Shown: positions 1,081-50,785 of the stretch, piece by piece
How positions within the stretch are numbered: position 1 is the first letter of the stretch
Layout of the letters: each line of letters opens with the position of its first letter
Assembly (NCBI GenBank): GCA_965197475.1
Contig: CBDANF010000002.1
Coordinates: 512,001-576,000 of the forward strand
Source of the DNA: Candidatus Poribacteria bacterium
GTDB taxonomy: Bacteria > Poribacteria > WGA-4E > WGA-3G
DNA: 64,000 nucleotides
Direction of reading: 5' to 3'
The notes under the pieces: generated by a model
What the model was told of the DNA's origin: nothing
Database searches by the model: none
Seen by the model: the letters and a program-made list of their open reading frames with translations, nothing else
Position numbers and translations under genes: made by a program

Positions 1081-1089
1081 TGTTATAAT
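1081..1089 (+). promoter_or_regulatory. Extended -10 promoter of the 1172-2994 operon
   Basis: TGTTATAAT consensus about 80 bp upstream of the ATG at 1172. Confidence 0.55.
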
Positions 1090-1171: not shown

Positions 1172-1963
1172 ATGAATACAACACCACAATCAACCCTAAA
1201 ATATGAGAATCCGCCTATTAATGAGATCGTTTGCGGTGTCCGAGTCGGACCAATTAAGCAGTTACAATCGGCACATTTCGGCATTCTGTGGCAAAAATTC
1301 AGGCATGATTTTCCCAAAACTGAAGACCATGATCTAATAGGTCCTATGTCCCAAGAGGATCTTGGGAGTATTAACAAGTTGCCATTGCCAAGGGTTTGGT
1401 TTATACACAGAAACGAAAACGAACTCGTTCAAGTACAACGAAATCGATTTCATTACAATTGGCGAGAAAGAGAAGAGGGTGATGAATATCCAGGGTACGA
1501 AAAAATTATTAATAACTTTGAAAGATATCTAACTCTTTTCCAAGAATTTCTGGTAGAGGAAAACTTAGGAAATCTCGTAACTAAAGAATATGAATTGACA
1601 TATATTGACCTCATTCCTAAAGGGCAAGGATGGGAAAATCTTAATGATTTGGAAAAAGTTTTCCCAAATTTATTATCTCTAACAAAACAAGACATACTTT
1701 CAACTAATGTGAGAGTTATTAATTGGCAAACTATTTTAGATTTACCAAATGGGTTAGGGCAATTAAGTGTAGCGATTCGTAGTGGTCAGAGGAAAACTAA
1801 CAGCCAACCACTTCTCCACATTGAAACCAAAGCATTAGGCAAGGGACATTCTGAATCTATGCAAGCATGGTTTGATGCCGCGCACACTACTATAACTGAA
1901 CTTTTTTTGAACCTCGTAAGCAGTGAGATTCAAAAGAAATTTTGGGGAAGAGAATCAAATTAG
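1172..1963 (+). CDS. TIGR04255 family protein
   Basis: YENPPINEIVCGVR, PRVWF...LVQVQRNRFHYNWR...YPGY, ELTYID, WFDAAH motifs. Confidence 0.8.
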   Translation: MNTTPQSTLKYENPPINEIVCGVRVGPIKQLQSAHFGILWQKFRHDFPKTEDHDLIGPMSQEDLGSINKLPLPRVWFIHRNENELVQVQRNRFHYNWREREEGDEYPGYEKIINNFERYLTLFQEFLVEENLGNLVTKEYELTYIDLIPKGQGWENLNDLEKVFPNLLSLTKQDILSTNVRVINWQTILDLPNGLGQLSVAIRSGQRKTNSQPLLHIETKALGKGHSESMQAWFDAAHTTITELFLNLVSSEIQKKFWGRESN

Positions 1964-1971
1964 GTGAACAT

Positions 1972-2415
1972 ATGCTAACTACAGCAACAATAGGCCAGGA
2001 CATAAATATCCCTCCTCTTTTTGACGAGGTAGAAAAACCGGGTGCTCTAAAGTTTTTCTGGGAAAATAAAAGGACACTATCGGAAGTAGGTTTTACTGCA
2101 GGAACGATTCTTAAAGGTTCAAATTTTCTCTTAGGTAGAAGGAAAAATTATCAGATGCCAGAATTTTCTAAGCGAAACACGATTGCATTGCTTGAATTAA
2201 GTTTTGAGGAAGAAGTTGCCCCTGGAATAACGCAAGAGTTTGCTGATATACAACAAGAACGCCTTGGATCTGCCTTCTACGATGATGAAGACCTACTTGA
2301 TTGGGACGCTGCTATAATTACCCCTCCACCTCGACCATCAGGTACAATACGGGTTAAGTTAAAACACAAAGAACGGAGAAAACCATCTCCTTTTGATGAT
2401 TATTGGGAAGAGTAG
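1972..2415 (+). CDS. Hypothetical protein with acidic/Pro-rich C-terminus (candidate antitoxin)
   Basis: AGGTG RBS before ATG 1972, 8 bp after the upstream stop. Confidence 0.65.
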   Translation: MLTTATIGQDINIPPLFDEVEKPGALKFFWENKRTLSEVGFTAGTILKGSNFLLGRRKNYQMPEFSKRNTIALLELSFEEEVAPGITQEFADIQQERLGSAFYDDEDLLDWDAAIITPPPRPSGTIRVKLKHKERRKPSPFDDYWEE

Positions 2416-2442
2416 GATTTTAACACTCAGGAATGTTTTAGC

Positions 2443-2994
2443 ATGACTTATCCTTGGTATTGTTTAGTTGATGGTGACAAATTGGAGCAAGGAGATATCC
2501 TTGAAGAATGTCCGGTATTTTCTCCACCCTCCAATTTAACACTAAATTCCTCAAAAGATCCCGAAGGCGAAGCATTATTTGAATGGGAAAGAAAAGATGT
2601 TATTATCATGTCTCAGAGCTGCGATTTAGTTAAGGGTAGAGAAAAAGTTGAGGATGTGTTACTTTGTATTATATGGAACATTTCAGAATTTGTTGCCGAA
2701 TTCGTAAGAGACGATTTATCCGAAAGACAAATTAAGGAACAACTTCGGAAGGGACAACGACCTGCTTTTCAAGTGCTTAATGAATGCGATTTACCGAATG
2801 TAAAAAGGGAATTCAGAGTTGTTGACTTGCGTCGTACTTACACGCTTCCACTAAGTTTTTGCAGAGAGTTTGCAGCAAAAGCTGAAAACCGTATTCGGTT
2901 GCTTCCACCATATCGAGAACATCTTTCTCAGGCTTTTGCTCGCTTTTTCATGCAAGTTGGTTTACCCACCGACATTCCTCCATTTAAAAAATAA
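2443..2994 (+). CDS. Conserved hypothetical protein, SQSCDL motif; MazF/PemK-like topology suspected
   Basis: LEQGDIL...VIIMSQSCDL...VVDLRRTYTLP...RIRLLPPYREHLSQAFARFFMQVGLP. Confidence 0.7.
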   Translation: MTYPWYCLVDGDKLEQGDILEECPVFSPPSNLTLNSSKDPEGEALFEWERKDVIIMSQSCDLVKGREKVEDVLLCIIWNISEFVAEFVRDDLSERQIKEQLRKGQRPAFQVLNECDLPNVKREFRVVDLRRTYTLPLSFCREFAAKAENRIRLLPPYREHLSQAFARFFMQVGLPTDIPPFKK

Positions 2995-10190: not shown

Positions 10191-11333
10191 TTAAGCCCCT
10201 GCCAAAAGCAGATGTAGTAAAATTTCGCCCGAAACAATCAGTAGTGCGACAAAGAAAGTACTGAAAAAACCATTTAGTTCAAATTTACGAACCGCTATAT
10301 TGGTAATTCCAAGAAGAAAGGCTATTAAAACAAGATAAGCAGGAAACTTAACTGTGTAAGATATTAGATCCAAAATGCATTCCTCACAACCTAAGGCGTG
10401 GCCGATGTCTTTAGGTGGCGCAGATGCCAGAAAAGATTTTATACCAGCAGGAAACGAATCGGATCTCACAATTCCTGTGAGTATCGTTTTAATAGCACCG
10501 AATCCGAGTGCAACCCCTACTGCTATTGGCCACTGATCAATGCTCACCGTTGGTAAAAACCAGATTACAACAAAAACAGCTATACTCATGATGAGTAGAA
10601 TGAAAGGGTATGCTAATTGTTTTTTCATTCCACGTGATGATACTTTGGGTGGAAAGGGTTCTACAGGACCTATTTGATTAAACAGCGATTTCAAAGTGTT
10701 TACAGGGATAGCGAAATTGAGATTTTGCCCATCGTCACGGGTTTCAGAAACGATCCCTATAACTTCTCCCCATCGATTTACAACTGCGCCGCCACTACTA
10801 CCGCGAGAAATAGCTGCTGTAAACTGAAGTACTTTGTCTTGTATTCGAGGTGTGCCTTGCGGCTGAATGTTACTGATCTCACCTGATGAGAATGTTCCTT
10901 CAAATCCGCGGGGATTGCCTACAGCATAAACAATTTCACCAACTCTAACAGTATCGCTGTTTCCAAGAGGAAGTGGGGGTGCATTAAGGGTAGTGACTTT
11001 TACTATTGCAAGGTCATGCTTCTCATCAGTTGCAACAACGCCTTCAATTTCAAACCGTTTCTGCTTACCGACTAACTTTGCAGTGCCTGTTTTGGCACCG
11101 CTGATAACATGATAATTTGTTGCCACGAGTCTATTAGCAACAAAGAAGCCGCTGCCTTGCGAAGATTGACCGTTCGCATCTTTCATTTCTAATAGGATTG
11201 TGGATGCGATCGTTTTTTCGGCAATAATTTCACGTGACTGGGCATTTACGACATTTATCCCATCATATAAAAGTACCAACAAGAGCATAAAACTAAGCGT
11301 TAGTTTTGCTTTACATGTTATAACGTTACTCAT
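10191..11333 (-). CDS. Trypsin-like serine protease with C-terminal holin-like (YvlD/Phage_holin_4_2-like) membrane domain
   Basis: GSGF, TNYHV, DLA, GSSGG triad; C-terminal 4-TM segment. Confidence 0.8.
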   Translation of the reverse strand: MSNVITCKAKLTLSFMLLLVLLYDGINVVNAQSREIIAEKTIASTILLEMKDANGQSSQGSGFFVANRLVATNYHVISGAKTGTAKLVGKQKRFEIEGVVATDEKHDLAIVKVTTLNAPPLPLGNSDTVRVGEIVYAVGNPRGFEGTFSSGEISNIQPQGTPRIQDKVLQFTAAISRGSSGGAVVNRWGEVIGIVSETRDDGQNLNFAIPVNTLKSLFNQIGPVEPFPPKVSSRGMKKQLAYPFILLIMSIAVFVVIWFLPTVSIDQWPIAVGVALGFGAIKTILTGIVRSDSFPAGIKSFLASAPPKDIGHALGCEECILDLISYTVKFPAYLVLIAFLLGITNIAVRKFELNGFFSTFFVALLIVSGEILLHLLLAGA

Positions 11334-14862: not shown

Positions 14863-14938
14863 GTTCATGTTAAGACAATTTATATATAAGATAAAAGTAT
14901 ATCAAAATCCTGAATAATAAATTTGGGGAGATGCTTTG

Positions 14939-16573
14939 ATGGTACAGGACATAGATAATACACTTTACGAGATGGACAATTTGGAGGTACTGCGTGGAAT
15001 CAATAGTAACAGCATAGACCTCATCGCAACAGACCCGCCATTTAATACTAAGCGCAACCGAAGCGGTACCGCTGGATTCTATGTCGATAAATGGAAATAT
15101 GGGGATACGGACAAACTTCCGGATCAATGGAAGTGGAATGAAGTCCATCCGAAATGGCTTGAAACTATCCAAGATGGACACCCTGCACTCTACCAAGTCA
15201 TTGAAGCCACAAAGGTTGTTCAAGACGAGGATACAGCTGCGTTTCTCTGTTTTCTCGGTGTCCGGCTCCTTGAAATGCACCGTATCCTAAAAGATACAGG
15301 TAGCATCTATTTGCATTGCGATCCAACCGCAAGCCACTACATCAAAATGTGTATGGATGCTATCTTTGGCAAAAAGAACTTCAGGTCTGAGATTACATGG
15401 AAGCGTGCAACATCTACACAAAAAGGCTCTCAACATCAGAGTAAAAGATGGGGAAATAACGCAGATATACTCTTGTATTATGCAGCATCTTCAGTCACAT
15501 CATTGTCTCCAGAGAGAGAATTGACAGAAACCGAAATCTTGGAGAAATTCAAACACGTAGACGAGAATGGACAACGCTATTACGACGACTCCGCCCATAT
15601 TTGGAGGACTCCAAATATGGGCGCGCGTCCGAACCTTTGTTATGAGTGGCGTGGTTTCGTCAATCCGCACCCATCTGGGTGGCGGTTAAGCAAAGAACGT
15701 TTGGAGGAGGAATATCAAAAAGGAAACATCGTTATTCGCTCTGATGGAAAACTGGAACGGCGGAAGTATCTAAAAGATTATAAAGGTGCATCCTATGGTA
15801 ATATTTGGGATGACGTGCCTCCACCCAGAGGTGAAGAACGCACAGGATCGCCCGACCAAAAACCGGTCACTCTCTATGAACGCATTATCAAAGCCAGTAG
15901 CAACGAGGGTGACATTGTGTTAGACCCGTTTTGTGGGTGTGCGACAACGATTATCGCCGCCAATAACCTTAAACGTCGGTGGATAGGTATTGATAGACGT
16001 AAAGACGCACGTTACCACATTATCACACGCCTTATGGGAATTGACCCAAAAGAGCGAAAGCGGATTGAGAAATACGCAACAGATAAAACATGGCTCGACA
16101 AACAGATGCAAAAAAATGAAATGCACTACCAAACTGAACCGCCTACCCGCACTGATAATCAGGAAACCGCAGCAGCCGAGTTACCACCTGTTCTTCCAAT
16201 TACTGAAGAATTTCAAATGACGCGCGCAGAAATACATAGGACGCTCGTAGAGCAGTTTGGACCTTACTGTTGGGGCTGTAATTTTGAGGCACCTGATCCG
16301 CGCTACCTTGAACTTGACCATATCAACCCAAAAAGTGGAAAGGATGACTATGGGCAGCATCATATTAATAACCGTGCGCTCTTATGTAAACCTTGTAACC
16401 TCGAAAAAAGCAACCGTATGACACTCCCTCAGCTGCGTAAAATCAACGAACAAAAAGGATATATGAAGGAAGGTACGCTCATTGACTTAAGCAGAGCAAG
16501 CGAATGGACGTGGCAATATCTTGTGCAACGGATTCGAGAAACGCCACATCAATATAACTTAAGGGGAATGTAA
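14939..16573 (+). CDS. Beta-class N4/N6 DNA methyltransferase fused to a C-terminal HNH endonuclease
   Basis: DPPF precedes DPFCGCATT; CWGC...LDHINPK...NRALLCKPCNLEKSN. Confidence 0.9.
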   Translation: MVQDIDNTLYEMDNLEVLRGINSNSIDLIATDPPFNTKRNRSGTAGFYVDKWKYGDTDKLPDQWKWNEVHPKWLETIQDGHPALYQVIEATKVVQDEDTAAFLCFLGVRLLEMHRILKDTGSIYLHCDPTASHYIKMCMDAIFGKKNFRSEITWKRATSTQKGSQHQSKRWGNNADILLYYAASSVTSLSPERELTETEILEKFKHVDENGQRYYDDSAHIWRTPNMGARPNLCYEWRGFVNPHPSGWRLSKERLEEEYQKGNIVIRSDGKLERRKYLKDYKGASYGNIWDDVPPPRGEERTGSPDQKPVTLYERIIKASSNEGDIVLDPFCGCATTIIAANNLKRRWIGIDRRKDARYHIITRLMGIDPKERKRIEKYATDKTWLDKQMQKNEMHYQTEPPTRTDNQETAAAELPPVLPITEEFQMTRAEIHRTLVEQFGPYCWGCNFEAPDPRYLELDHINPKSGKDDYGQHHINNRALLCKPCNLEKSNRMTLPQLRKINEQKGYMKEGTLIDLSRASEWTWQYLVQRIRETPHQYNLRGM

Positions 16574-16729
16574 ACTGTTTTACGTTTTCATTGAGTGCCT
16601 TGTAGTTATAGGTTAGGTAGCGCGTAAGCGAAACCCAACATTAATGTGTTAGCATTATCCACAAGAAATCAGCATTTGGTGGAGTACCAGTTAAGCAAAA
16701 AATACTGTTGATAACAAACTGGAGATAAA

Positions 16730-18190
16730 ATGGTAGAATTCTATAGATTTAGAAGCATAGATGCTCTATTAGATAAATACCAAGAACTTGAGAAACGGAC
16801 TATCTATTTTGCTGATCCAGAAGAATTGAATGATCCAATGGAAGGTTTTCGAGATATTGTGTGGAATGGTGATAAAATTGTCTGGACCAAATTTATCAAG
16901 CATTATGTTTTTTGTCTACATCGGAGTTATTTGCTTCTTGCAATGGTCAGAAACTCTACTAAATTAGATGTGGACAGTATTCCAATATTAGACCGTTGGG
17001 ATCAACTTACAATTCCTTTAGAGAAGGATTTGTTTGATGGTATCTGGAATAATTTCCACAATTTACTTAACATAAAAGAAATCATTGAGGCATTAGCGCG
17101 CCCGGAGCGCAAAATCAGATATAGAGAGATCGGATATTATCTTCAAGGTATACACTTTGTTCTTTTAGGTGAAATCCAAAAATCACATATTGAACATGGA
17201 CTCATGTCCGAACTCCAAATTCCCAAACTATCTTACGAATTGTCTACCGCAGCATCAATGGAAAACCTCCTCAACCTCATAGAACTAACCGAGGCAGTCG
17301 AAGACGAAGAGCAACTCAACGCTATATTTCATGTATGTGGAGACCGATACGATGATATAAGGCTTGAGCTGCTGTACAATAGTCGAACAATACACACAGG
17401 AATATTAGCGAAGAATACTCAATTAGTGACAGTTGATTTTCCCAAGGTATACGTTGAACAACTTGAAAGGTTACTTTGGTCCAAGTGGTACACGGCTTGT
17501 TTTACGAAAAGTTACCACAACTCATCTGTATGGGGACATTATGGGGATAACCATAAAGGAGCCTGTTTGATTTTTGAAGCTATAGAAACAGATAACTCAA
17601 ATCAATTAGGTTTGAATCTAACAACCGATAGCGGAACCAGAACATTGTTTTTCCATGAGGTTAATTATGCAGAAAAACCATGTGAGATTGATTTCTTTCG
17701 AACCATTTGCAGAGAGATGACAGTGGATATGCTCATGAAACAGTGGTACACTGATCATGAAGGGAACACCTCTAAATGTGCCGCGCATATTGAATCACAG
17801 GGAGGCGATGAAGATGTGTGGAAAAAAAGATATTGGGAGGATGTATTTCGCGACATTACTACCAAAACCACAGATTGGGCGTATGAGCAAGAATGTCGTC
17901 TAATTTTAGAAGACGGCTTAAGTCAATTCAATGAAAAAAAAGAACGCACACTAATTTATGACTTTAATTCGTTGAAAGGTATTATTTTTGGGATCAAAAC
18001 ATCAACTGAAGATCAAATGAAAATCATTAATATTATAGAAAAAAAGTGGGGTAAAAACAAACGGACTGACTTTAAGTATTATCAGGCTTACTACTGTCCT
18101 ATAAAGAGGAAGATTCGCAAGAGGCAGATATATTTGCCATTTTCTAATGTTAAAGATACTGACCAAGCCGTCTCAACGTCCAACCAATAA
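16730..18190 (+). CDS. DUF2971 domain protein
   Basis: FYRFR, LNDPMEG, ACF...WGHYGDNHKGACLIF, KTTDWAYEQECR, GIIFG. Confidence 0.85.
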   Translation: MVEFYRFRSIDALLDKYQELEKRTIYFADPEELNDPMEGFRDIVWNGDKIVWTKFIKHYVFCLHRSYLLLAMVRNSTKLDVDSIPILDRWDQLTIPLEKDLFDGIWNNFHNLLNIKEIIEALARPERKIRYREIGYYLQGIHFVLLGEIQKSHIEHGLMSELQIPKLSYELSTAASMENLLNLIELTEAVEDEEQLNAIFHVCGDRYDDIRLELLYNSRTIHTGILAKNTQLVTVDFPKVYVEQLERLLWSKWYTACFTKSYHNSSVWGHYGDNHKGACLIFEAIETDNSNQLGLNLTTDSGTRTLFFHEVNYAEKPCEIDFFRTICREMTVDMLMKQWYTDHEGNTSKCAAHIESQGGDEDVWKKRYWEDVFRDITTKTTDWAYEQECRLILEDGLSQFNEKKERTLIYDFNSLKGIIFGIKTSTEDQMKIINIIEKKWGKNKRTDFKYYQAYYCPIKRKIRKRQIYLPFSNVKDTDQAVSTSNQ

Positions 18191-31552: not shown

Positions 31553-32176
31553 TTAGTTGAACACAGGTTCACTACCAGAAACTTCAGTTGTCGCTTTGAA
31601 GATAGAATTAACAGCACCGAATAAAATAGGCAAATTAGCCAAAGTAAAGTTTGTTCTGTTTCGCGTAAAGGTGTCGTCAACAAGTCGTCCAAATTCCCAT
31701 AATGTTCCGTCGGTGACAATACCGTAGACAGGAAAAGACGGATCGTCATTTATCTTTTGGGCAGCAACCAACTCAGATAAACATTGCCCCCATCCTTGTT
31801 CAAAGTCGTTCTTTTTTGCCTCAACTAACATTATCAAAGGTGTGCCAACAACGGTTAAACCTAATTCGGATTTCGTAGAGATAAGGTAATCCGGGGTGCC
31901 GTTTAGGGTTTCATCATAAGTGATGGGTTCCTTTATCCATAAGGCATAACTATCAGCATATCTTTTGTAGACCTCTCTTAAGATAGGAAAGATTACAGCC
32001 TCACATCTTGATGCCTCAGACGAAAAAACATTGATGTGTTGCAAACTAAACTCAAAATCCTGCAGAAATTGTTCAGAAGGTTTTGCTTCCTCGACTTCGA
32101 AAAAGTCATTTGCCGAGTATCTGATTCTAAATTTTTCTTGAACTTCAGAAATCTTTTTGAAATCGCTAAATGCCAT
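31553..32176 (-). CDS. PD-(D/E)xK nuclease-fold protein (HsdR-N-like), paralog 1
   Basis: GTPDYL...VEAKKNDFEQGWGQCLSEL...YGIVTDG. Confidence 0.8.
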   Translation of the reverse strand: MAFSDFKKISEVQEKFRIRYSANDFFEVEEAKPSEQFLQDFEFSLQHINVFSSEASRCEAVIFPILREVYKRYADSYALWIKEPITYDETLNGTPDYLISTKSELGLTVVGTPLIMLVEAKKNDFEQGWGQCLSELVAAQKINDDPSFPVYGIVTDGTLWEFGRLVDDTFTRNRTNFTLANLPILFGAVNSIFKATTEVSGSEPVFN

Positions 32177-32217
32177 AAGTTTTTTCTCCCTTAAATTCTG
32201 AAGTTGCTATAGATTGG

Positions 32218-33732
32218 TTAAGCATACGATAGTCGTTCAACTCGGTTCTCCAATGTTTCCATTTGCTCAAGGATTGCACCGATGAGTTGTGCTTTATCAG
32301 CTGCATAAGCAGGATTGTCCCACTGATTGACTCGTTCTGTTGGGTCATCTGCCAGATCGTAAAGTTCACCATACGGATGTCCACAATACCATGTCAACTT
32401 CCGTGTGTCAGTTACAATAGTCTTGAGGCGTAAGCCTTGCGGGTCGTCTATACATTCAATTAATACTGAATCTCGCACGTTATCTTGTTCTCCAGTGAGC
32501 ATCGGCATCGCATCAACACCATCTGTATCTGATGGGATTGGCAATCCAGCAGCTGCGAGCATGGTTGGGACAATATCAACGTGGCTGAATAGTGCTTGTG
32601 TACGCTGTCCAGATGGAATAACTGCAGGATACCGCATCAATGTCGGCACTCTGACAAGCTGCTCATAATGGAAAGGTCCCTTCATCCAGAGTCCGTGGTC
32701 ACCCAGAAGTTCACCGTGATCGGTAGTAAACAGGACCAATGTCCTTTCGGTCAATCCGCGCGCATCAAGACATTCCAAAATACGTCCCATCTGCTGATCA
32801 ATAATCTTCACCATATTGTAATAGTATGCTCTGCCTAACCGCGCATCGTCTTCGGAAACTTTGCGAAAATCTGCACCACCGCCTTGCCCAGCGATTGCAA
32901 ACCTTCCACGAATCTTTGATTTACCAAGTTGTCCACAACGTGCTTCCATAAAATGGGGTGGCTTGTCGTCCAATTCACCCTCAATGAAGTCTGGGAGTGA
33001 CACCTCTGCAGGATCAACACGTTCCTGAAATTCTGTTGGCACGCAATGTGGATGGTGTGGATCTTGAAAGCCAACTGCTAACAAAAACGGTTGTTCGGCA
33101 GAATGGTTTGTCAGAAAATCTATTGTCCGATCAGCAGTCCAAACACTATTGTGGTATTTTAAGGATATGTCCCAATCGTGGGCACCGCCGCCAAATCCTA
33201 CTTTTGAGAGATGTGTTGCTTTGCTGTAACTCGCAAATGTCTCTTGGGAAACTTGAGACTTTACCCATTCACCGTAATGACCAGCGAGTCCATAGGTTGC
33301 ATGTCCGAGTGCCAATTCTATTGTCTCAAATCCGTAGTAGGGACCGCGAAATTCGGGATAACGATCTGTATTGCCTCGCGTTTCAATCGATTGTTCGGGA
33401 GATGCACCGAAGGGTTGAAAATGCGCTTTACCGATATAGTGCGTGCGATACCCGACATCTGAAAGTCGATGTGAGATCATCGGTTCGTCTTCAGGGACGT
33501 TCATGCCGACGTTCCACGCACCGTGTCGACTGACATATTTTCCTGAAAAGATTGAGGCACGGGCAGGCGTACATACCGGATTTGCACAATACGCACGTTC
33601 AAGACAAACCCCTTCAGAGGCGAGTTTATCCAGATGGGGTGTATCTGTAAATGTTGAACCGTAGCAGCTGAGGCTATCTGTTCGTTGTTGATCTGTTGTG
33701 ATAATAAGGATATTGGGGCGTTGTGTATTCAT
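32218..33732 (-). CDS. Sulfatase (Cys-type formylglycine)
   Basis: PNILIITTDQQR, CTPARAS, GKAH, PHHPH, TDHG..LGDHG. Confidence 0.93.
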   Translation of the reverse strand: MNTQRPNILIITTDQQRTDSLSCYGSTFTDTPHLDKLASEGVCLERAYCANPVCTPARASIFSGKYVSRHGAWNVGMNVPEDEPMISHRLSDVGYRTHYIGKAHFQPFGASPEQSIETRGNTDRYPEFRGPYYGFETIELALGHATYGLAGHYGEWVKSQVSQETFASYSKATHLSKVGFGGGAHDWDISLKYHNSVWTADRTIDFLTNHSAEQPFLLAVGFQDPHHPHCVPTEFQERVDPAEVSLPDFIEGELDDKPPHFMEARCGQLGKSKIRGRFAIAGQGGGADFRKVSEDDARLGRAYYYNMVKIIDQQMGRILECLDARGLTERTLVLFTTDHGELLGDHGLWMKGPFHYEQLVRVPTLMRYPAVIPSGQRTQALFSHVDIVPTMLAAAGLPIPSDTDGVDAMPMLTGEQDNVRDSVLIECIDDPQGLRLKTIVTDTRKLTWYCGHPYGELYDLADDPTERVNQWDNPAYAADKAQLIGAILEQMETLENRVERLSYA

Positions 33733-33763
33733 TAGGTATTTTATTTTCTCAATATTGACAAAC

Positions 33764-34363
33764 TTAATTTTCTTGTATTGCTTTGAAGACAGAGTCCACA
33801 GCACCAAATAGAACAGGTAAATCAGCTAAAGTAAAGTTAGTTCGATTTCGTGTAAAAACATCTCCAACAAGTTTTCCAAATTCCCATACCGTTCCATCGG
33901 TAACAATACCATAAACGGGAAAATCAGGGTCGTCATTTATTTTTTGCGCGGCAACCAACTCAGCCAAACATTGTCCCCACCCCTGTTCAAAGTCGTTCTT
34001 TTTCGCCTCAACCATCATTATCAAAGGCATTCCGACAACAGTAATGCCCAATTCAGATTTGGTAGCGACAAGATAATCTGGCGTGCCATTCAAAGTCTCA
34101 TCATAAGTAATGGATTTCTTTACCCAAAGTCCATAGTTTTCAGCATAATCTTTGTAGATCTCTCTTAAAATAGGGAATATAACCACTTCACATCTTGATC
34201 CCTCTGATGTAAAAAAATCAATATGTTGCTTACTAAACTCAAGTTCTTTCAGAAATTGTTCTGAAGGATCTTTTGCCTCAACTCCAAAAAAATCGTTATA
34301 CGAGTATTTGATGTTAAATTTTTCTTGAACCTCAGAAATTGTCTTAAAATCGCTAAATGCCAT
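33764..34363 (-). CDS. PD-(D/E)xK nuclease-fold protein, paralog 2
   Basis: Highly similar to 31553-32176 (MAFSDFK...VEAKKNDFEQGWGQCLAEL); GGAGG RBS. Confidence 0.8.
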   Translation of the reverse strand: MAFSDFKTISEVQEKFNIKYSYNDFFGVEAKDPSEQFLKELEFSKQHIDFFTSEGSRCEVVIFPILREIYKDYAENYGLWVKKSITYDETLNGTPDYLVATKSELGITVVGMPLIMMVEAKKNDFEQGWGQCLAELVAAQKINDDPDFPVYGIVTDGTVWEFGKLVGDVFTRNRTNFTLADLPVLFGAVDSVFKAIQEN

Positions 34364-34415
34364 GAGTGCTACCTCCCATAATTTCAATTTAAGATTATTT
34401 GAAGTGAGTTATAGA

Positions 34416-49126: not shown

Positions 49127-50785
49127 ATGAGAATAAATAGTATTCAATTAAAATATTTTAAAGGTTTTGAAGATTCTGGTAAAGTCCCAATAGGCAGTGT
49201 AACTAGCATTATTGGCAGAAATGGACATGGCAAGTCAACTCTTTTTGAAGCTATTAGGAACACGTTTAACTATGAGAATATTAATCTAAATTCGGAACAA
49301 AGAAACGGTACTGACAAAAACCCAACGGTTTGTTTAGAGTGTGATATTACATCAAAAGATAGTATTTCAGGGATAACGAGTAATACCACTCTTAAGATTG
49401 AAAGAACAGTAAATGGGATAAAGGGTGCTAATAATGATATAATAAGACAAATATTTAATATGACTAATATTGTAACTCAACCAGAGATAATTCAGATTCC
49501 GTTAACTATTAATTTATCCAAGGGTCAAAACAATGCTGCTATCAATGTCCTTGTAAAGGATAACCCTGGATGGAAAAATATATTTGGGACATTATCCATT
49601 ACACCTGATTATATCAAAAATCAATTGCGTGATGCAAACACAAAAGAACAATTTCATGCAAATACTATAGATGATTTGGTAAGAGATTTTACTGAAAACT
49701 TTAATAAATGGACGATACATATTACAAATCGAACTTATGATTTTAAGATTTTTTTTGGAGAAAACAACGAATCAAAACTTGAATTATACATGCATGTTCG
49801 GCATAAACTTGCAAAGTCACAAGAATGGTCAAATTGGTCAAGATTAGAACAAAAATCAGTAAGTTTCAGAATTTTACTCACATTAACAATCCACAGGTTT
49901 AAAAATGACGGCCATAGTGAAAATCATATTTTTCTTTTTGATGAACCATTTGTTCATATGCATCCAAAAATGCAAGTAGAAGTTAAGAACATAATGAAAG
50001 AATTTAGTGAACACAATCAAATAATTTATACAACACATTCTCCATATTTAAAACAAGAAAATAACAGTCTCTTTTGTGTAGAAAAATCTCCAGACGCTTT
50101 TGTAATAAAAACTGAAGATCAATTGGATCCAGAAGAACAAGCACAGTATATTGATGATTTCAGCATGATTACGCCTTATGATTTACAACGTTATTTTGAC
50201 TTACAACACCAAACATCAGAATCCGATAAAGACCTCTTATGTTATGTTGAAGGGAAAACGGATGTAGAATATATAAACCACGTATTGAATATACATGATA
50301 AAAAGTGTATTTTGAATTCTGTTGATATATTTGATTTGGAAGGAAAGGGGAACTTAGATGCAGTTTTTGCTGGTGAGAAAATGCAAAGAGAAAAAAATAG
50401 TAGAATTGCACCAAATATCTTATTTATTTATGATTGTGATGCAAAAATGAAGAAAAAATCTGACGAAAAAATTGGTCTTTTTGTAGAACAGATTCCATCT
50501 AATAATGGTAAAATTAAGAAAGGTATTGAAAATTTATTATCCAATACTTCAATTGAAAAAGCATACGAAGAGGCAATAATAACACAGTATAATACAGAAA
50601 AGTTTGAAGACGACTCCGGGAATTATCATGAAGAAAAGTCTTACGTAGTCAAAGATAACGAAAAATGTAGTTTACAAAAATGGGTATGCAAACAGCCGGA
50701 AAACGTTGAAGATTTTAGAGCATTTGATGTTATTATATCAATTGTCGAATCTACATTGGAAAAATTAGGTAAGGACGGTTCATAA
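49127..50785 (+). CDS. OLD-like ABC ATPase-TOPRIM nuclease
   Basis: GRNGHGKS, LFDEP..HMHP, TTHSPY, YVEGKTD, YDCD, GIENL. Confidence 0.85.
   Translation: MRINSIQLKYFKGFEDSGKVPIGSVTSIIGRNGHGKSTLFEAIRNTFNYENINLNSEQRNGTDKNPTVCLECDITSKDSISGITSNTTLKIERTVNGIKGANNDIIRQIFNMTNIVTQPEIIQIPLTINLSKGQNNAAINVLVKDNPGWKNIFGTLSITPDYIKNQLRDANTKEQFHANTIDDLVRDFTENFNKWTIHITNRTYDFKIFFGENNESKLELYMHVRHKLAKSQEWSNWSRLEQKSVSFRILLTLTIHRFKNDGHSENHIFLFDEPFVHMHPKMQVEVKNIMKEFSEHNQIIYTTHSPYLKQENNSLFCVEKSPDAFVIKTEDQLDPEEQAQYIDDFSMITPYDLQRYFDLQHQTSESDKDLLCYVEGKTDVEYINHVLNIHDKKCILNSVDIFDLEGKGNLDAVFAGEKMQREKNSRIAPNILFIYDCDAKMKKKSDEKIGLFVEQIPSNNGKIKKGIENLLSNTSIEKAYEEAIITQYNTEKFEDDSGNYHEEKSYVVKDNEKCSLQKWVCKQPENVEDFRAFDVIISIVESTLEKLGKDGS

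Follow-up and report, generated by a model that had tools for sequence, protein, structure and literature searches.

We analysed a 64,000-nucleotide (nt) stretch of DNA, referred to here as the window, which is part of contig 2 of a 5.7-Mb sponge-symbiont genome whose nearest public relatives are Candidatus Poribacteria metagenome-assembled genomes. Near the start of the window lies a cassette of three genes (genes 1, 2 and 3; 1172–2994, about 1.8 kb, all on the plus strand), which is present in a single copy in this genome. We propose that, on balance, the locus is probably a module of toxin-antitoxin type, resembling type II systems and horizontally mobile, whose third component is optional. 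The proposal draws on the predicted fold of gene 3, which is that of the toxins MazF, CcdB and Kid, on the conservation of gene 3 and of the end of gene 2, on the recurrent pairing of these two genes, and on the modular use of the TIGR04255 family, to which gene 1 belongs. The features of the locus are as follows.

1081–1089, plus strand: extended -10 promoter-like box TGTTATAAT (exact match; putative function)
1172–1963, plus strand: gene 1, TIGR04255 protein of 263 amino acids (aa), the optional, modular first gene (NCBIfam profile)
1972–2415, plus strand: gene 2, small acidic protein of 147 aa from ATG, candidate neutraliser/adaptor (open reading frame, ORF)
2269–2412, plus strand: conserved C-terminal module of gene 2, about residues 100–147 (43-sequence alignment)
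2443–2994, plus strand: gene 3, 183 aa, predicted MazF/CcdB/Kid fold with insertions, candidate toxin/effector (structure model, conservation)

We compared the AlphaFold model of gene 3 (predicted local distance difference test, pLDDT, 87.2; predicted template-modelling score, pTM, 0.82) with solved structures. The top Foldseek matches were all MazF chains (E 3e-4). A search of 48,161 chains by a method other than Foldseek returned MazF, CcdB and Kid as its first 11 rows (Z 10.8–7.4), with whole chains covered; in the same search CptN reached Z 6.8, AbiQ and ToxN reached Z 4.7, and unrelated Tudor-like barrels appeared from Z 4.2. The model matched MazF-mt3 (8zws_A) over 104/105 residues (Z 10.8; root-mean-square deviation 2.6 Å), and a second structural comparison gave Z 9.3–10.1 for CcdB and Z 8.3–8.5 for Kid. 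To the extent that a model can decide, the predicted fold of gene 3 is that of MazF, CcdB and Kid, to which gene 3 adds about 70 residues over the solved toxins (a long loop at 28–46 and two helices at 80–102). The original prediction for this locus, read from the DNA alone, had described gene 3 as MazF/PemK-like on the order of its motifs. The fold bore this out, with Foldseek and with the independent search; the sequence did not, as neither PF02452 nor hhalign supported it. By sequence, gene 3 lies outside the PemK/MazF family, and it is likewise without a Pfam match to CcdB.

Gene 3 belonged to no family in Pfam (none at E ≤ 1), NCBIfam or PADLOC, and in PHROGs it weakly matched phrog_4575, whose function is not known (E 1.3e-4). 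Its own family is large: 3325 proteins in a collection clustered at 90% (E ≤ 0.001), every one named "hypothetical", or 2710 clusters at 50% identity, 585 of them with E ≤ 1e-30. Among contigs representing one genome per species, 422 stretches were confirmed as relatives, from Planctomycetota, Verrucomicrobiota, Chloroflexota, Methanosarcinales, Asgard and other archaea. A sequence search of the PDB gave chance-level matches to ribosomal S10/S20 only (E ≥ 0.47), and ESM Atlas gave only unnamed clusters. Fused forms of gene 3 were considered and rejected, as the search for longer proteins yielded four singletons with unrelated domains that are probably gene-calling run-ons.

An alignment of 43 gene 3 sequences from bacteria and archaea showed W5, Q16-G17-D18, C23, Q58-x-C60-D61, R102 and G104 to be invariant, and the C-terminus to be nearly invariant over 30 residues (P156-Y-R-E-H-L161, FARFFM-VGLP). 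The motifs that the original prediction had picked out (QGDI, IIMSQSCDL, VLL, VVDLRRTYTL and R.RL) are all in the translation and mostly occupy invariant or near-invariant columns of this alignment, in which SQSCDL, then called distinctive, proved to be a family signature. Three motifs are candidates for an active or metal site: QSCD, which follows strand 2; VVDxR, on the strand that precedes the last helices; and PYREH, with which the C-terminal helix begins. A nuclease site could be formed by Y-R-E-H with C60/D61 and D128/R130, and a metal site by C23, C60 and H160. In MazF, the catalytic Arg stands at the start of strand 2 and a Thr/Ser at the end of strand 3. The invariant residues of gene 3 differ from those that we take to be catalytic in MazF and Kid. 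In a forced profile alignment, which is statistically unsupported, the MazF 'RP' fell opposite non-conserved residues and 'PIT' opposite 'C-x-x-W'.

Gene 2 had no family in Pfam, NCBIfam, PADLOC or PHROGs. The original prediction had described an acidic protein with an acidic/aromatic tail. The protein is indeed acidic (isoelectric point, pI, 4.95; charge -9 over residues 61–107), and its conservation is confined to the last ~45 residues (43-sequence alignment A2), the N-terminus varying in both length and sequence. The conserved module runs from an acidic stretch through LLDWD (in bacteria), PPPRPSGTIRVKLK, a basic stretch and a conserved Pro to the acidic/aromatic end; the family pattern at the PPPRPSGTIRVKLK part is PPPRxSGTIxVxF. 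We built a hidden Markov model (HMM) of this module and searched those gene 3 loci that had 500 nt or more of upstream flank for an ORF on the same strand ending between -80 and +200 nt of gene 3. The module immediately preceded gene 3, in the same orientation, at 73/79 loci; 42 of these 73 had gone into the HMM, and the remaining 31 were independent hits. The small acidic protein comes first and the toxin-fold protein second, with short gaps or overlaps. The conserved core of the cassette is the gene 2–gene 3 pair, and adjacent, co-oriented small genes with conserved pairing are the arrangement by which type II systems are recognised. A complex prediction for gene 3 with residues 88–147 of gene 2 gave scores of 0.29 and 0.19 (mark 0.32), which bear neither way on binding.

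Contigs from two sponge metatranscriptome runs (one study) and from one run guessed to be RNA covered 2320–2978 at 90–99% identity. These RNA-library contigs, from related strains, bridge the gene 2–gene 3 junction, which is weak evidence with DNA carry-over possible. Transcript start, strand and level are unreadable from contigs, and the lack of cover in the RNA libraries for the greater part of gene 1 and for the 5' portion of gene 2 proves nothing. In a DNA run, the 65 nt at 2320–2384 (the PPPRPSGTIRVKLK part of gene 2) had about 20 times the depth of their flanks, with contigs diverging on both sides; related gene 2 copies of more abundant organisms share this piece at ≥90% identity. At two loci the gene 2 module lay within a longer ORF, one of 471 aa matching Peptidase_C1 and GNAT (L018, 3570–4985) and one of 324 aa with TPR-family matches (L044, 4000–4974). 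These long ORFs may be domain fusions or run-on ORF calls.

The first gene is optional and variable. At the 71 gene 3 loci with at least 1400 nt of upstream sequence, gene 2 was preceded by TIGR04255 in 29, by a family of 219 aa in 10, and by neither in 32; the gene 2 module was still present in 27 of these last 32. Of 53 upstream ORFs picked for a scan, 25 were confirmed as TIGR04255 by the NCBIfam model. We considered the 219-aa family as a divergent TIGR04255 and rejected this, the hhalign probability being 0.4%, without sequence support. At three poribacterial loci (L004, L008 and L011), a protein of 540–544 aa without a Pfam or NCBIfam family occupies the TIGR04255 place before genes 2 and 3. 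The length of gene 2 varied with its neighbour, with a median of 138 aa (112–167) beside TIGR04255, 159 aa beside the 219-aa family and 99 aa beside neither (Mann-Whitney p 2e-4, overstated since the loci are related); an N-terminal extension of gene 2 goes with the extra first gene in about half of the loci. Within the phylum, 20 of 25 roughly full-length gene 3 loci had, by coordinates, a TIGR04255 gene about 0.5 kb upstream on the same strand, and gene 3 loci without one occurred in G135, G142, G113, G029 and G152. The tripartite module of the original prediction stood in part: the three genes do co-occur, in bacteria and archaea, but TIGR04255 is optional (29/71) and the core is the pair.

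Gene 1 matched TIGR04255 with 78.4 bits against a cut-off of 30 (E 7.4e-22; profile positions 1–251 of 252), so that the family named in the original prediction was recovered over its full profile length. It had no Pfam family at E ≤ 1, a PDB sequence search gave nothing, and ESM Atlas gave nothing above 0.77. The protein is acidic (pI 5.8). Its model (pLDDT 84.9) consists of two beta-sheet/helix halves and has no clear structural relative: Foldseek returned TBP, AdoMetDC and McsB at template-modelling (TM) scores of 0.25–0.44, and a wide fold search returned the McsB kinase domain (Z 8.3) and arginine kinase (Z 8.1), both in the middling range. A kinase reading of gene 1 was rejected, because the family invariants G37, F77, Q87, N96, Y144, W233 and F245 include none of the charged residues that we would expect at a phosphotransfer site. 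The SecB relationship raised by the original prediction failed at the level of sequence (no relation in Pfam or NCBIfam profiles), and SecB was not among the fold matches listed for gene 1.

TIGR04255 extends well beyond this cassette. The window genome has three such genes, and the phylum has 115 matches in 83 of its 176 genomes; about one in six TIGR04255 genes is therefore linked to gene 3, given the 20 gene 3 loci that carry one. We examined 42 other TIGR04255 loci, namely the genome's own two, the 20 best-scoring ones not beside gene 3, and a further 20 with lower scores that lie on long contigs. A co-oriented chain was found in 38/42, with TIGR04255 followed by a middle gene of 163–430 aa and a third gene of 77–191 aa. 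By BLASTP (1e-5) the cargo of the 42 loci fell into type A (21 loci), type B (14), type D (2) and type E (3); of the remaining two loci, one had a gene 2-like ORF without gene 3 and one had nothing. All hhalign probabilities stayed under 9%, whether one cargo type was compared with another or with gene 2, gene 3 or MazF, and the cargo types had no Pfam family. Judged by these comparisons, TIGR04255 heads cassettes with at least four apparently unrelated cargo pairs besides gene 2–gene 3, and its supposed specificity for the toxin-like protein had to be given up. The clade of the window's own gene 1 is joined to type A cargo at two loci.

The two other TIGR04255 cassettes of the window genome, L083 (G000 contig 2, 937590–941303) and L082 (G000 contig 3, 3456729–3460472), carry type A cargo with a middle gene of 201–303 aa; the third gene has 167 aa, but is cut down to 77 aa in L082. 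L083 adjoins a DUF3696 ATPase fragment and a PIN-like ORF. The poribacterial loci L105–L118 are type B cassettes. The next gene clusters with a protein matching N6_Mtase/HsdM_N (Pfam) in 7/14 of them, five of these neighbours being full length (481–488 aa) and two short pieces. As the genomes are related, these loci may be one orthologous locus.

In an archaeal order, TIGR04255 was found in 10/68 genomes. Ten archaeal loci were read: three have the canonical order TIGR04255–gene 2–gene 3 (L162, L165 and L166), two have a divergent gene 3, and five have other downstream genes. L163, also canonical, comes from the bacterial genome (named Firmicutes) that holds L062. At archaeal loci L167 and L168, a TIGR04255-like gene is followed by about 150 nt without an ORF of at least 50 aa and then by a divergent gene 3 (E 1e-13 to 1e-14); the gap may hold a very short gene 2, or none.

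The layout of the cassette agrees with the original description of three tight, co-oriented, AT-rich genes behind a TGnTATAAT box and beside an IS3. Gene 1 and gene 2 are 8 nt apart and gene 2 and gene 3 are 27 nt apart, with a purine-rich stretch before the ATG at both gaps; an alternative TTG start at 1942 would give gene 2 157 aa. The GC content of the cassette is 38.2% against a window mean of 42.8% (standard deviation 2.8), a value as low being found in just 4.2% of windows of the same length. TGTTATAAT lies 83 nt from the ATG of gene 1, and its TG-TA-AAT positions are kept in 6/6 aligned upstream regions of related loci. TGNTATAAT sites number 9 in the window against 2.9 expected, and a two-hexamer promoter scan did not list the TGTTATAAT site at 1081–1089. 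An operator search upstream of gene 1 gave AT-rich near-palindromes only, which are not distinctive. A second TGnTATAAT, TGCTATAAT, occurs at 2310–2318 inside gene 2, about 125 nt before the start of gene 3, and could be an internal promoter of gene 3 or a chance match.

The IS3-type element lies at 2–987 on the minus strand and has HTH_Tnp_1 and rve ORFs. Read depth and loose ends in public runs put its boundary at about 1066, some 15 nt short of the -10 box. In a DNA run the IS3 had a depth of ~2658 and the cassette ~11, and thus the IS3 is highly repeated in that DNA sample. This copy took the place of upstream sequence that related loci conserve. Downstream of the cassette are an 864-aa WD40 protein and a DDE_3 transposase. 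The gene 3 family was found in 29/176 genomes of the phylum, and it is represented among bacteria as well as archaea. At 5/80 loci gene 3 is disrupted, among them the nearest relative, L002 (5001–5546; 90% identity), where one in-frame TGA ends the open frame after 157 aa, before the PYREH helix; more decayed copies within the phylum were found in G070, G097, G023 and G152. The profile is that of an accessory, mobile gene: patchy, with decayed copies, single-copy, AT-rich, adjacent to an insertion sequence and variable in its partners.

Genes of defence type occur in the window and near some relatives of the cassette. Within the window, 8/44 ORFs gave defence-type matches at E ≤ 1e-10. Among its genes of defence or mobile type are a trypsin-like domain matching RT-Protease_XI (10194–11333), a DNA methyltransferase of type II/III-like kind with a PDC-S31-like ORF after it (14936–18187), two PD-DExK genes on either side of a 529-aa ORF (31556–34387), and an OLD/AriA/PtuA-like ATPase (49127–50782). 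Because the window is itself rich in such genes, it is unfit as a control for defence-gene density. We scanned 147 flanking ORFs at 32 loci (the first 150 of 308 selected, from 354 in all, minus three over-long ones). PADLOC matches at E ≤ 1e-20 were found for 14/147 ORFs at 9/32 loci, with three Ser/Thr-kinase-type hits excluded and without a matched control, and they included restriction-modification, Lamassu, pAgo and AriA-type ATPase families. A type I restriction-modification system and LmuA/LmuB (Lamassu) flank L014, pAgo and a type IIG enzyme flank L004, and AriA/NsnB-type ATPases flank L002, L041 and L042.

In the toxin-antitoxin-type module that we propose, gene 3 would be the effector, a new and very conserved branch of the MazF/CcdB/Kid fold with its own candidate active or metal site. 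It would be toxic and might act on RNA, as MazF does, or on a protein, as CcdB does. Gene 2, translated just upstream, would be the cognate neutraliser, its conserved C-terminal ~45 residues binding gene 3. The N-terminal part of gene 2, variable and extended where a first gene is present, would contact gene 1 and so couple the pair to it. Gene 1 would be a modular accessory that stabilises gene 2, or that senses a trigger and releases the effector, like the SecB-like chaperones of toxin-antitoxin-chaperone (TAC) systems.

Several observations weigh against this proposal. The mean column identity of gene 3 is 56% across the 43 bacterial and archaeal sequences, far above that of usual toxin-antitoxin toxins. 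Gene 3 is not basic, with a pI of 5.25 here and a family median of 6.07. This near-neutral value is closer to that which we take CcdB to have than to that of the RNA-binding MazF. A six-frame search with PF02452 (PemK) found seven other sites in the genome and none at gene 3, and hhalign of gene 3 against 28 MazF homologues from related genomes gave probabilities of 1.4% (global) and 2.5% (local). The topological alignment has no conserved Arg at the position of the catalytic Arg of MazF, as we take it to be. No DNA-binding domain is recognisable in gene 2 with Pfam or NCBIfam, and TIGR04255 is missing from most gene 3 loci. The contrast in gene 2 length and the counts of neighbouring genes were both drawn from related genomes, without matched controls. 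As to mobility, no gene 3 copy was found among 72,556 plasmid records (PLSDB) or 50,697 GenBank phage records, and IMG/VR yielded seven gene 3 loci only.

The alternative that survives best is a dedicated anti-phage (abortive infection) system, in which TIGR04255 would sense a phage product, gene 2 would be the adaptor or inhibitor and gene 3 the effector set free upon infection, the other cassettes carrying different warheads. We regard this as a genuine possibility that falls short of probable; it sharpens the toxin-antitoxin reading and does not contradict it. A constant first gene with interchangeable cargo pairs fits it, and so do the defence neighbours at L014, L004, L002, L041 and L042, the HsdM-type methylase cluster that follows type B cassettes in seven loci (five full length), and the presence in the window of the methyltransferase, the two PD-DExK genes and the OLD/AriA-like ATPase. 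Defence by such sensing has been reported for TAC systems (10.1101/2024.02.24.581848). However, none of the three proteins had a convincing match in PADLOC-DB 2.0 (a chance-level Specificity_I match for gene 1, E 0.0022, and none for genes 2 and 3), most gene 3 loci do without TIGR04255, and the density of defence genes was counted without a matched control at loci of which many come from related genomes.

A broader version, in which TIGR04255 marks a large undescribed class of modular conflict systems, each of three genes, in bacteria and archaea, appears doubtful to us. In such a class a constant two-lobed head (sensor/chaperone), its fold so far without a match, would be linked by the variable N-terminus of a middle adaptor to interchangeable effectors. 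One of these would be a new Cys/His-bearing branch of the MazF/CcdB fold, with more than 2,700 clusters at 50% identity. Also tentative, and to a like degree, are the further parts of this version: that at least five unrelated cargo pairs belong to the class, that the near-invariant C-terminus of gene 3 points to a universally conserved cellular target, and that the class is a SecB-independent counterpart of TAC systems.

It is unlikely that the locus is not a toxin system at all, with gene 3 a conserved enzyme (for example Cys/His-dependent or metal-binding) or binding protein that has no more than the small barrel fold in common with the toxins, and gene 2 its substrate, regulator or assembly partner. 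The unusual conservation, with a near-invariant 30-residue C-terminus and invariant C23, C60 and H160, would be accounted for in this way, as would the lack of sequence likeness to known toxins and the absence of gene 3 from the plasmid and phage collections. Yet all strong structural matches of gene 3 are toxins, and the patchy occurrence (29/176 genomes), decayed copies, single-copy state, AT-richness, adjacent insertion sequence and variable partner architecture argue for a mobile module. Least probable, and in our view quite improbable, is that gene 1 is the transcriptional regulator of a three-component operon, supplying the DNA-binding function missing from gene 2. Operons of three components in which the regulator is a protein of its own are known, as in paaR-paaA-parE (PMC7167474), and the halves of gene 1 resemble TBP-like domains at low scores (TBP Z 6.1–6.3; Foldseek E ~3e-4, TM 0.27–0.44), but these weak similarities of fold do not single out DNA binders, gene 1 is acidic, two-gene forms manage without it, and the upstream region offers only AT-rich near-palindromes.

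We return to the toxin-antitoxin reading and compare the cassette with known systems. The kind is already known, namely a toxin-antitoxin module with an accessory protein and a toxin of the MazF/CcdB fold. In the literature searched we found no description of the three families, of their combination or of the modular use of TIGR04255, and TIGR04255, CHP04255 and IPR026349 go unmentioned there, although a description under another name is possible.

The cassette resembles MazEF, Kis-Kid (PemIK) and CcdAB in that gene 3 has their toxin fold across whole solved chains (Z 10.8–8.3), a small acidic protein is encoded directly upstream, the core has two genes, and occurrence is mobile and patchy. 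It differs from them in that gene 3 has no sequence or profile similarity to their toxins, carries ~70 extra residues and has its own invariants (QSCD and PYREH), in that gene 2 has no recognisable DNA-binding domain, and in that gene 3 is conserved much more highly. Should gene 3 prove to be a toxin, the MazF/CcdB fold would gain a large branch that spans bacteria and archaea, and the differences in its invariant residues may point to new chemistry or a new target. The type III toxins ToxN, AbiQ and CptN, whose fold is distantly related (Z 6.8–4.7), are inhibited by repeat RNAs. In contrast to these systems, a protein gene lies directly upstream of gene 3.

The paaR-paaA-parE system (PMC7167474) likewise has three small co-transcribed genes with the extra gene first. 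Gene 1 differs from that extra gene in having no recognisable DNA-binding domain and in being common to unrelated cargo pairs.

A parallel in organisation is with TAC systems, in which an extension of the antitoxin links HigBA, HicAB or MqsRA pairs to a SecB-like chaperone (PMC5105189, PMC6377645), and this chaperone can double as a phage sensor (10.1101/2024.02.24.581848). The TAC forms (HigBA, HicAB, MqsRA and CmdTA with a SecB-like protein) share with our cassettes a constant third protein joined in one operon to unrelated two-gene pairs, and a neutraliser, gene 2 being the candidate here, that is extended where the third protein is encoded. The differences are that the third protein here is TIGR04255 and not SecB, that it is encoded first and not last, that the extra segment of gene 2 is N-terminal and not a C-terminal chaperone-addiction extension, and that no cargo pair here belongs to a known toxin-antitoxin family. 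Since the cassettes are small (1.8 kb), they are directly testable in laboratory strains. If TIGR04255 is a common sensor or chaperone, a family described as 'sporadically distributed, function unknown' gains a testable role, and chaperone addiction as known from TAC systems would have evolved twice, in this case around an unrelated protein.

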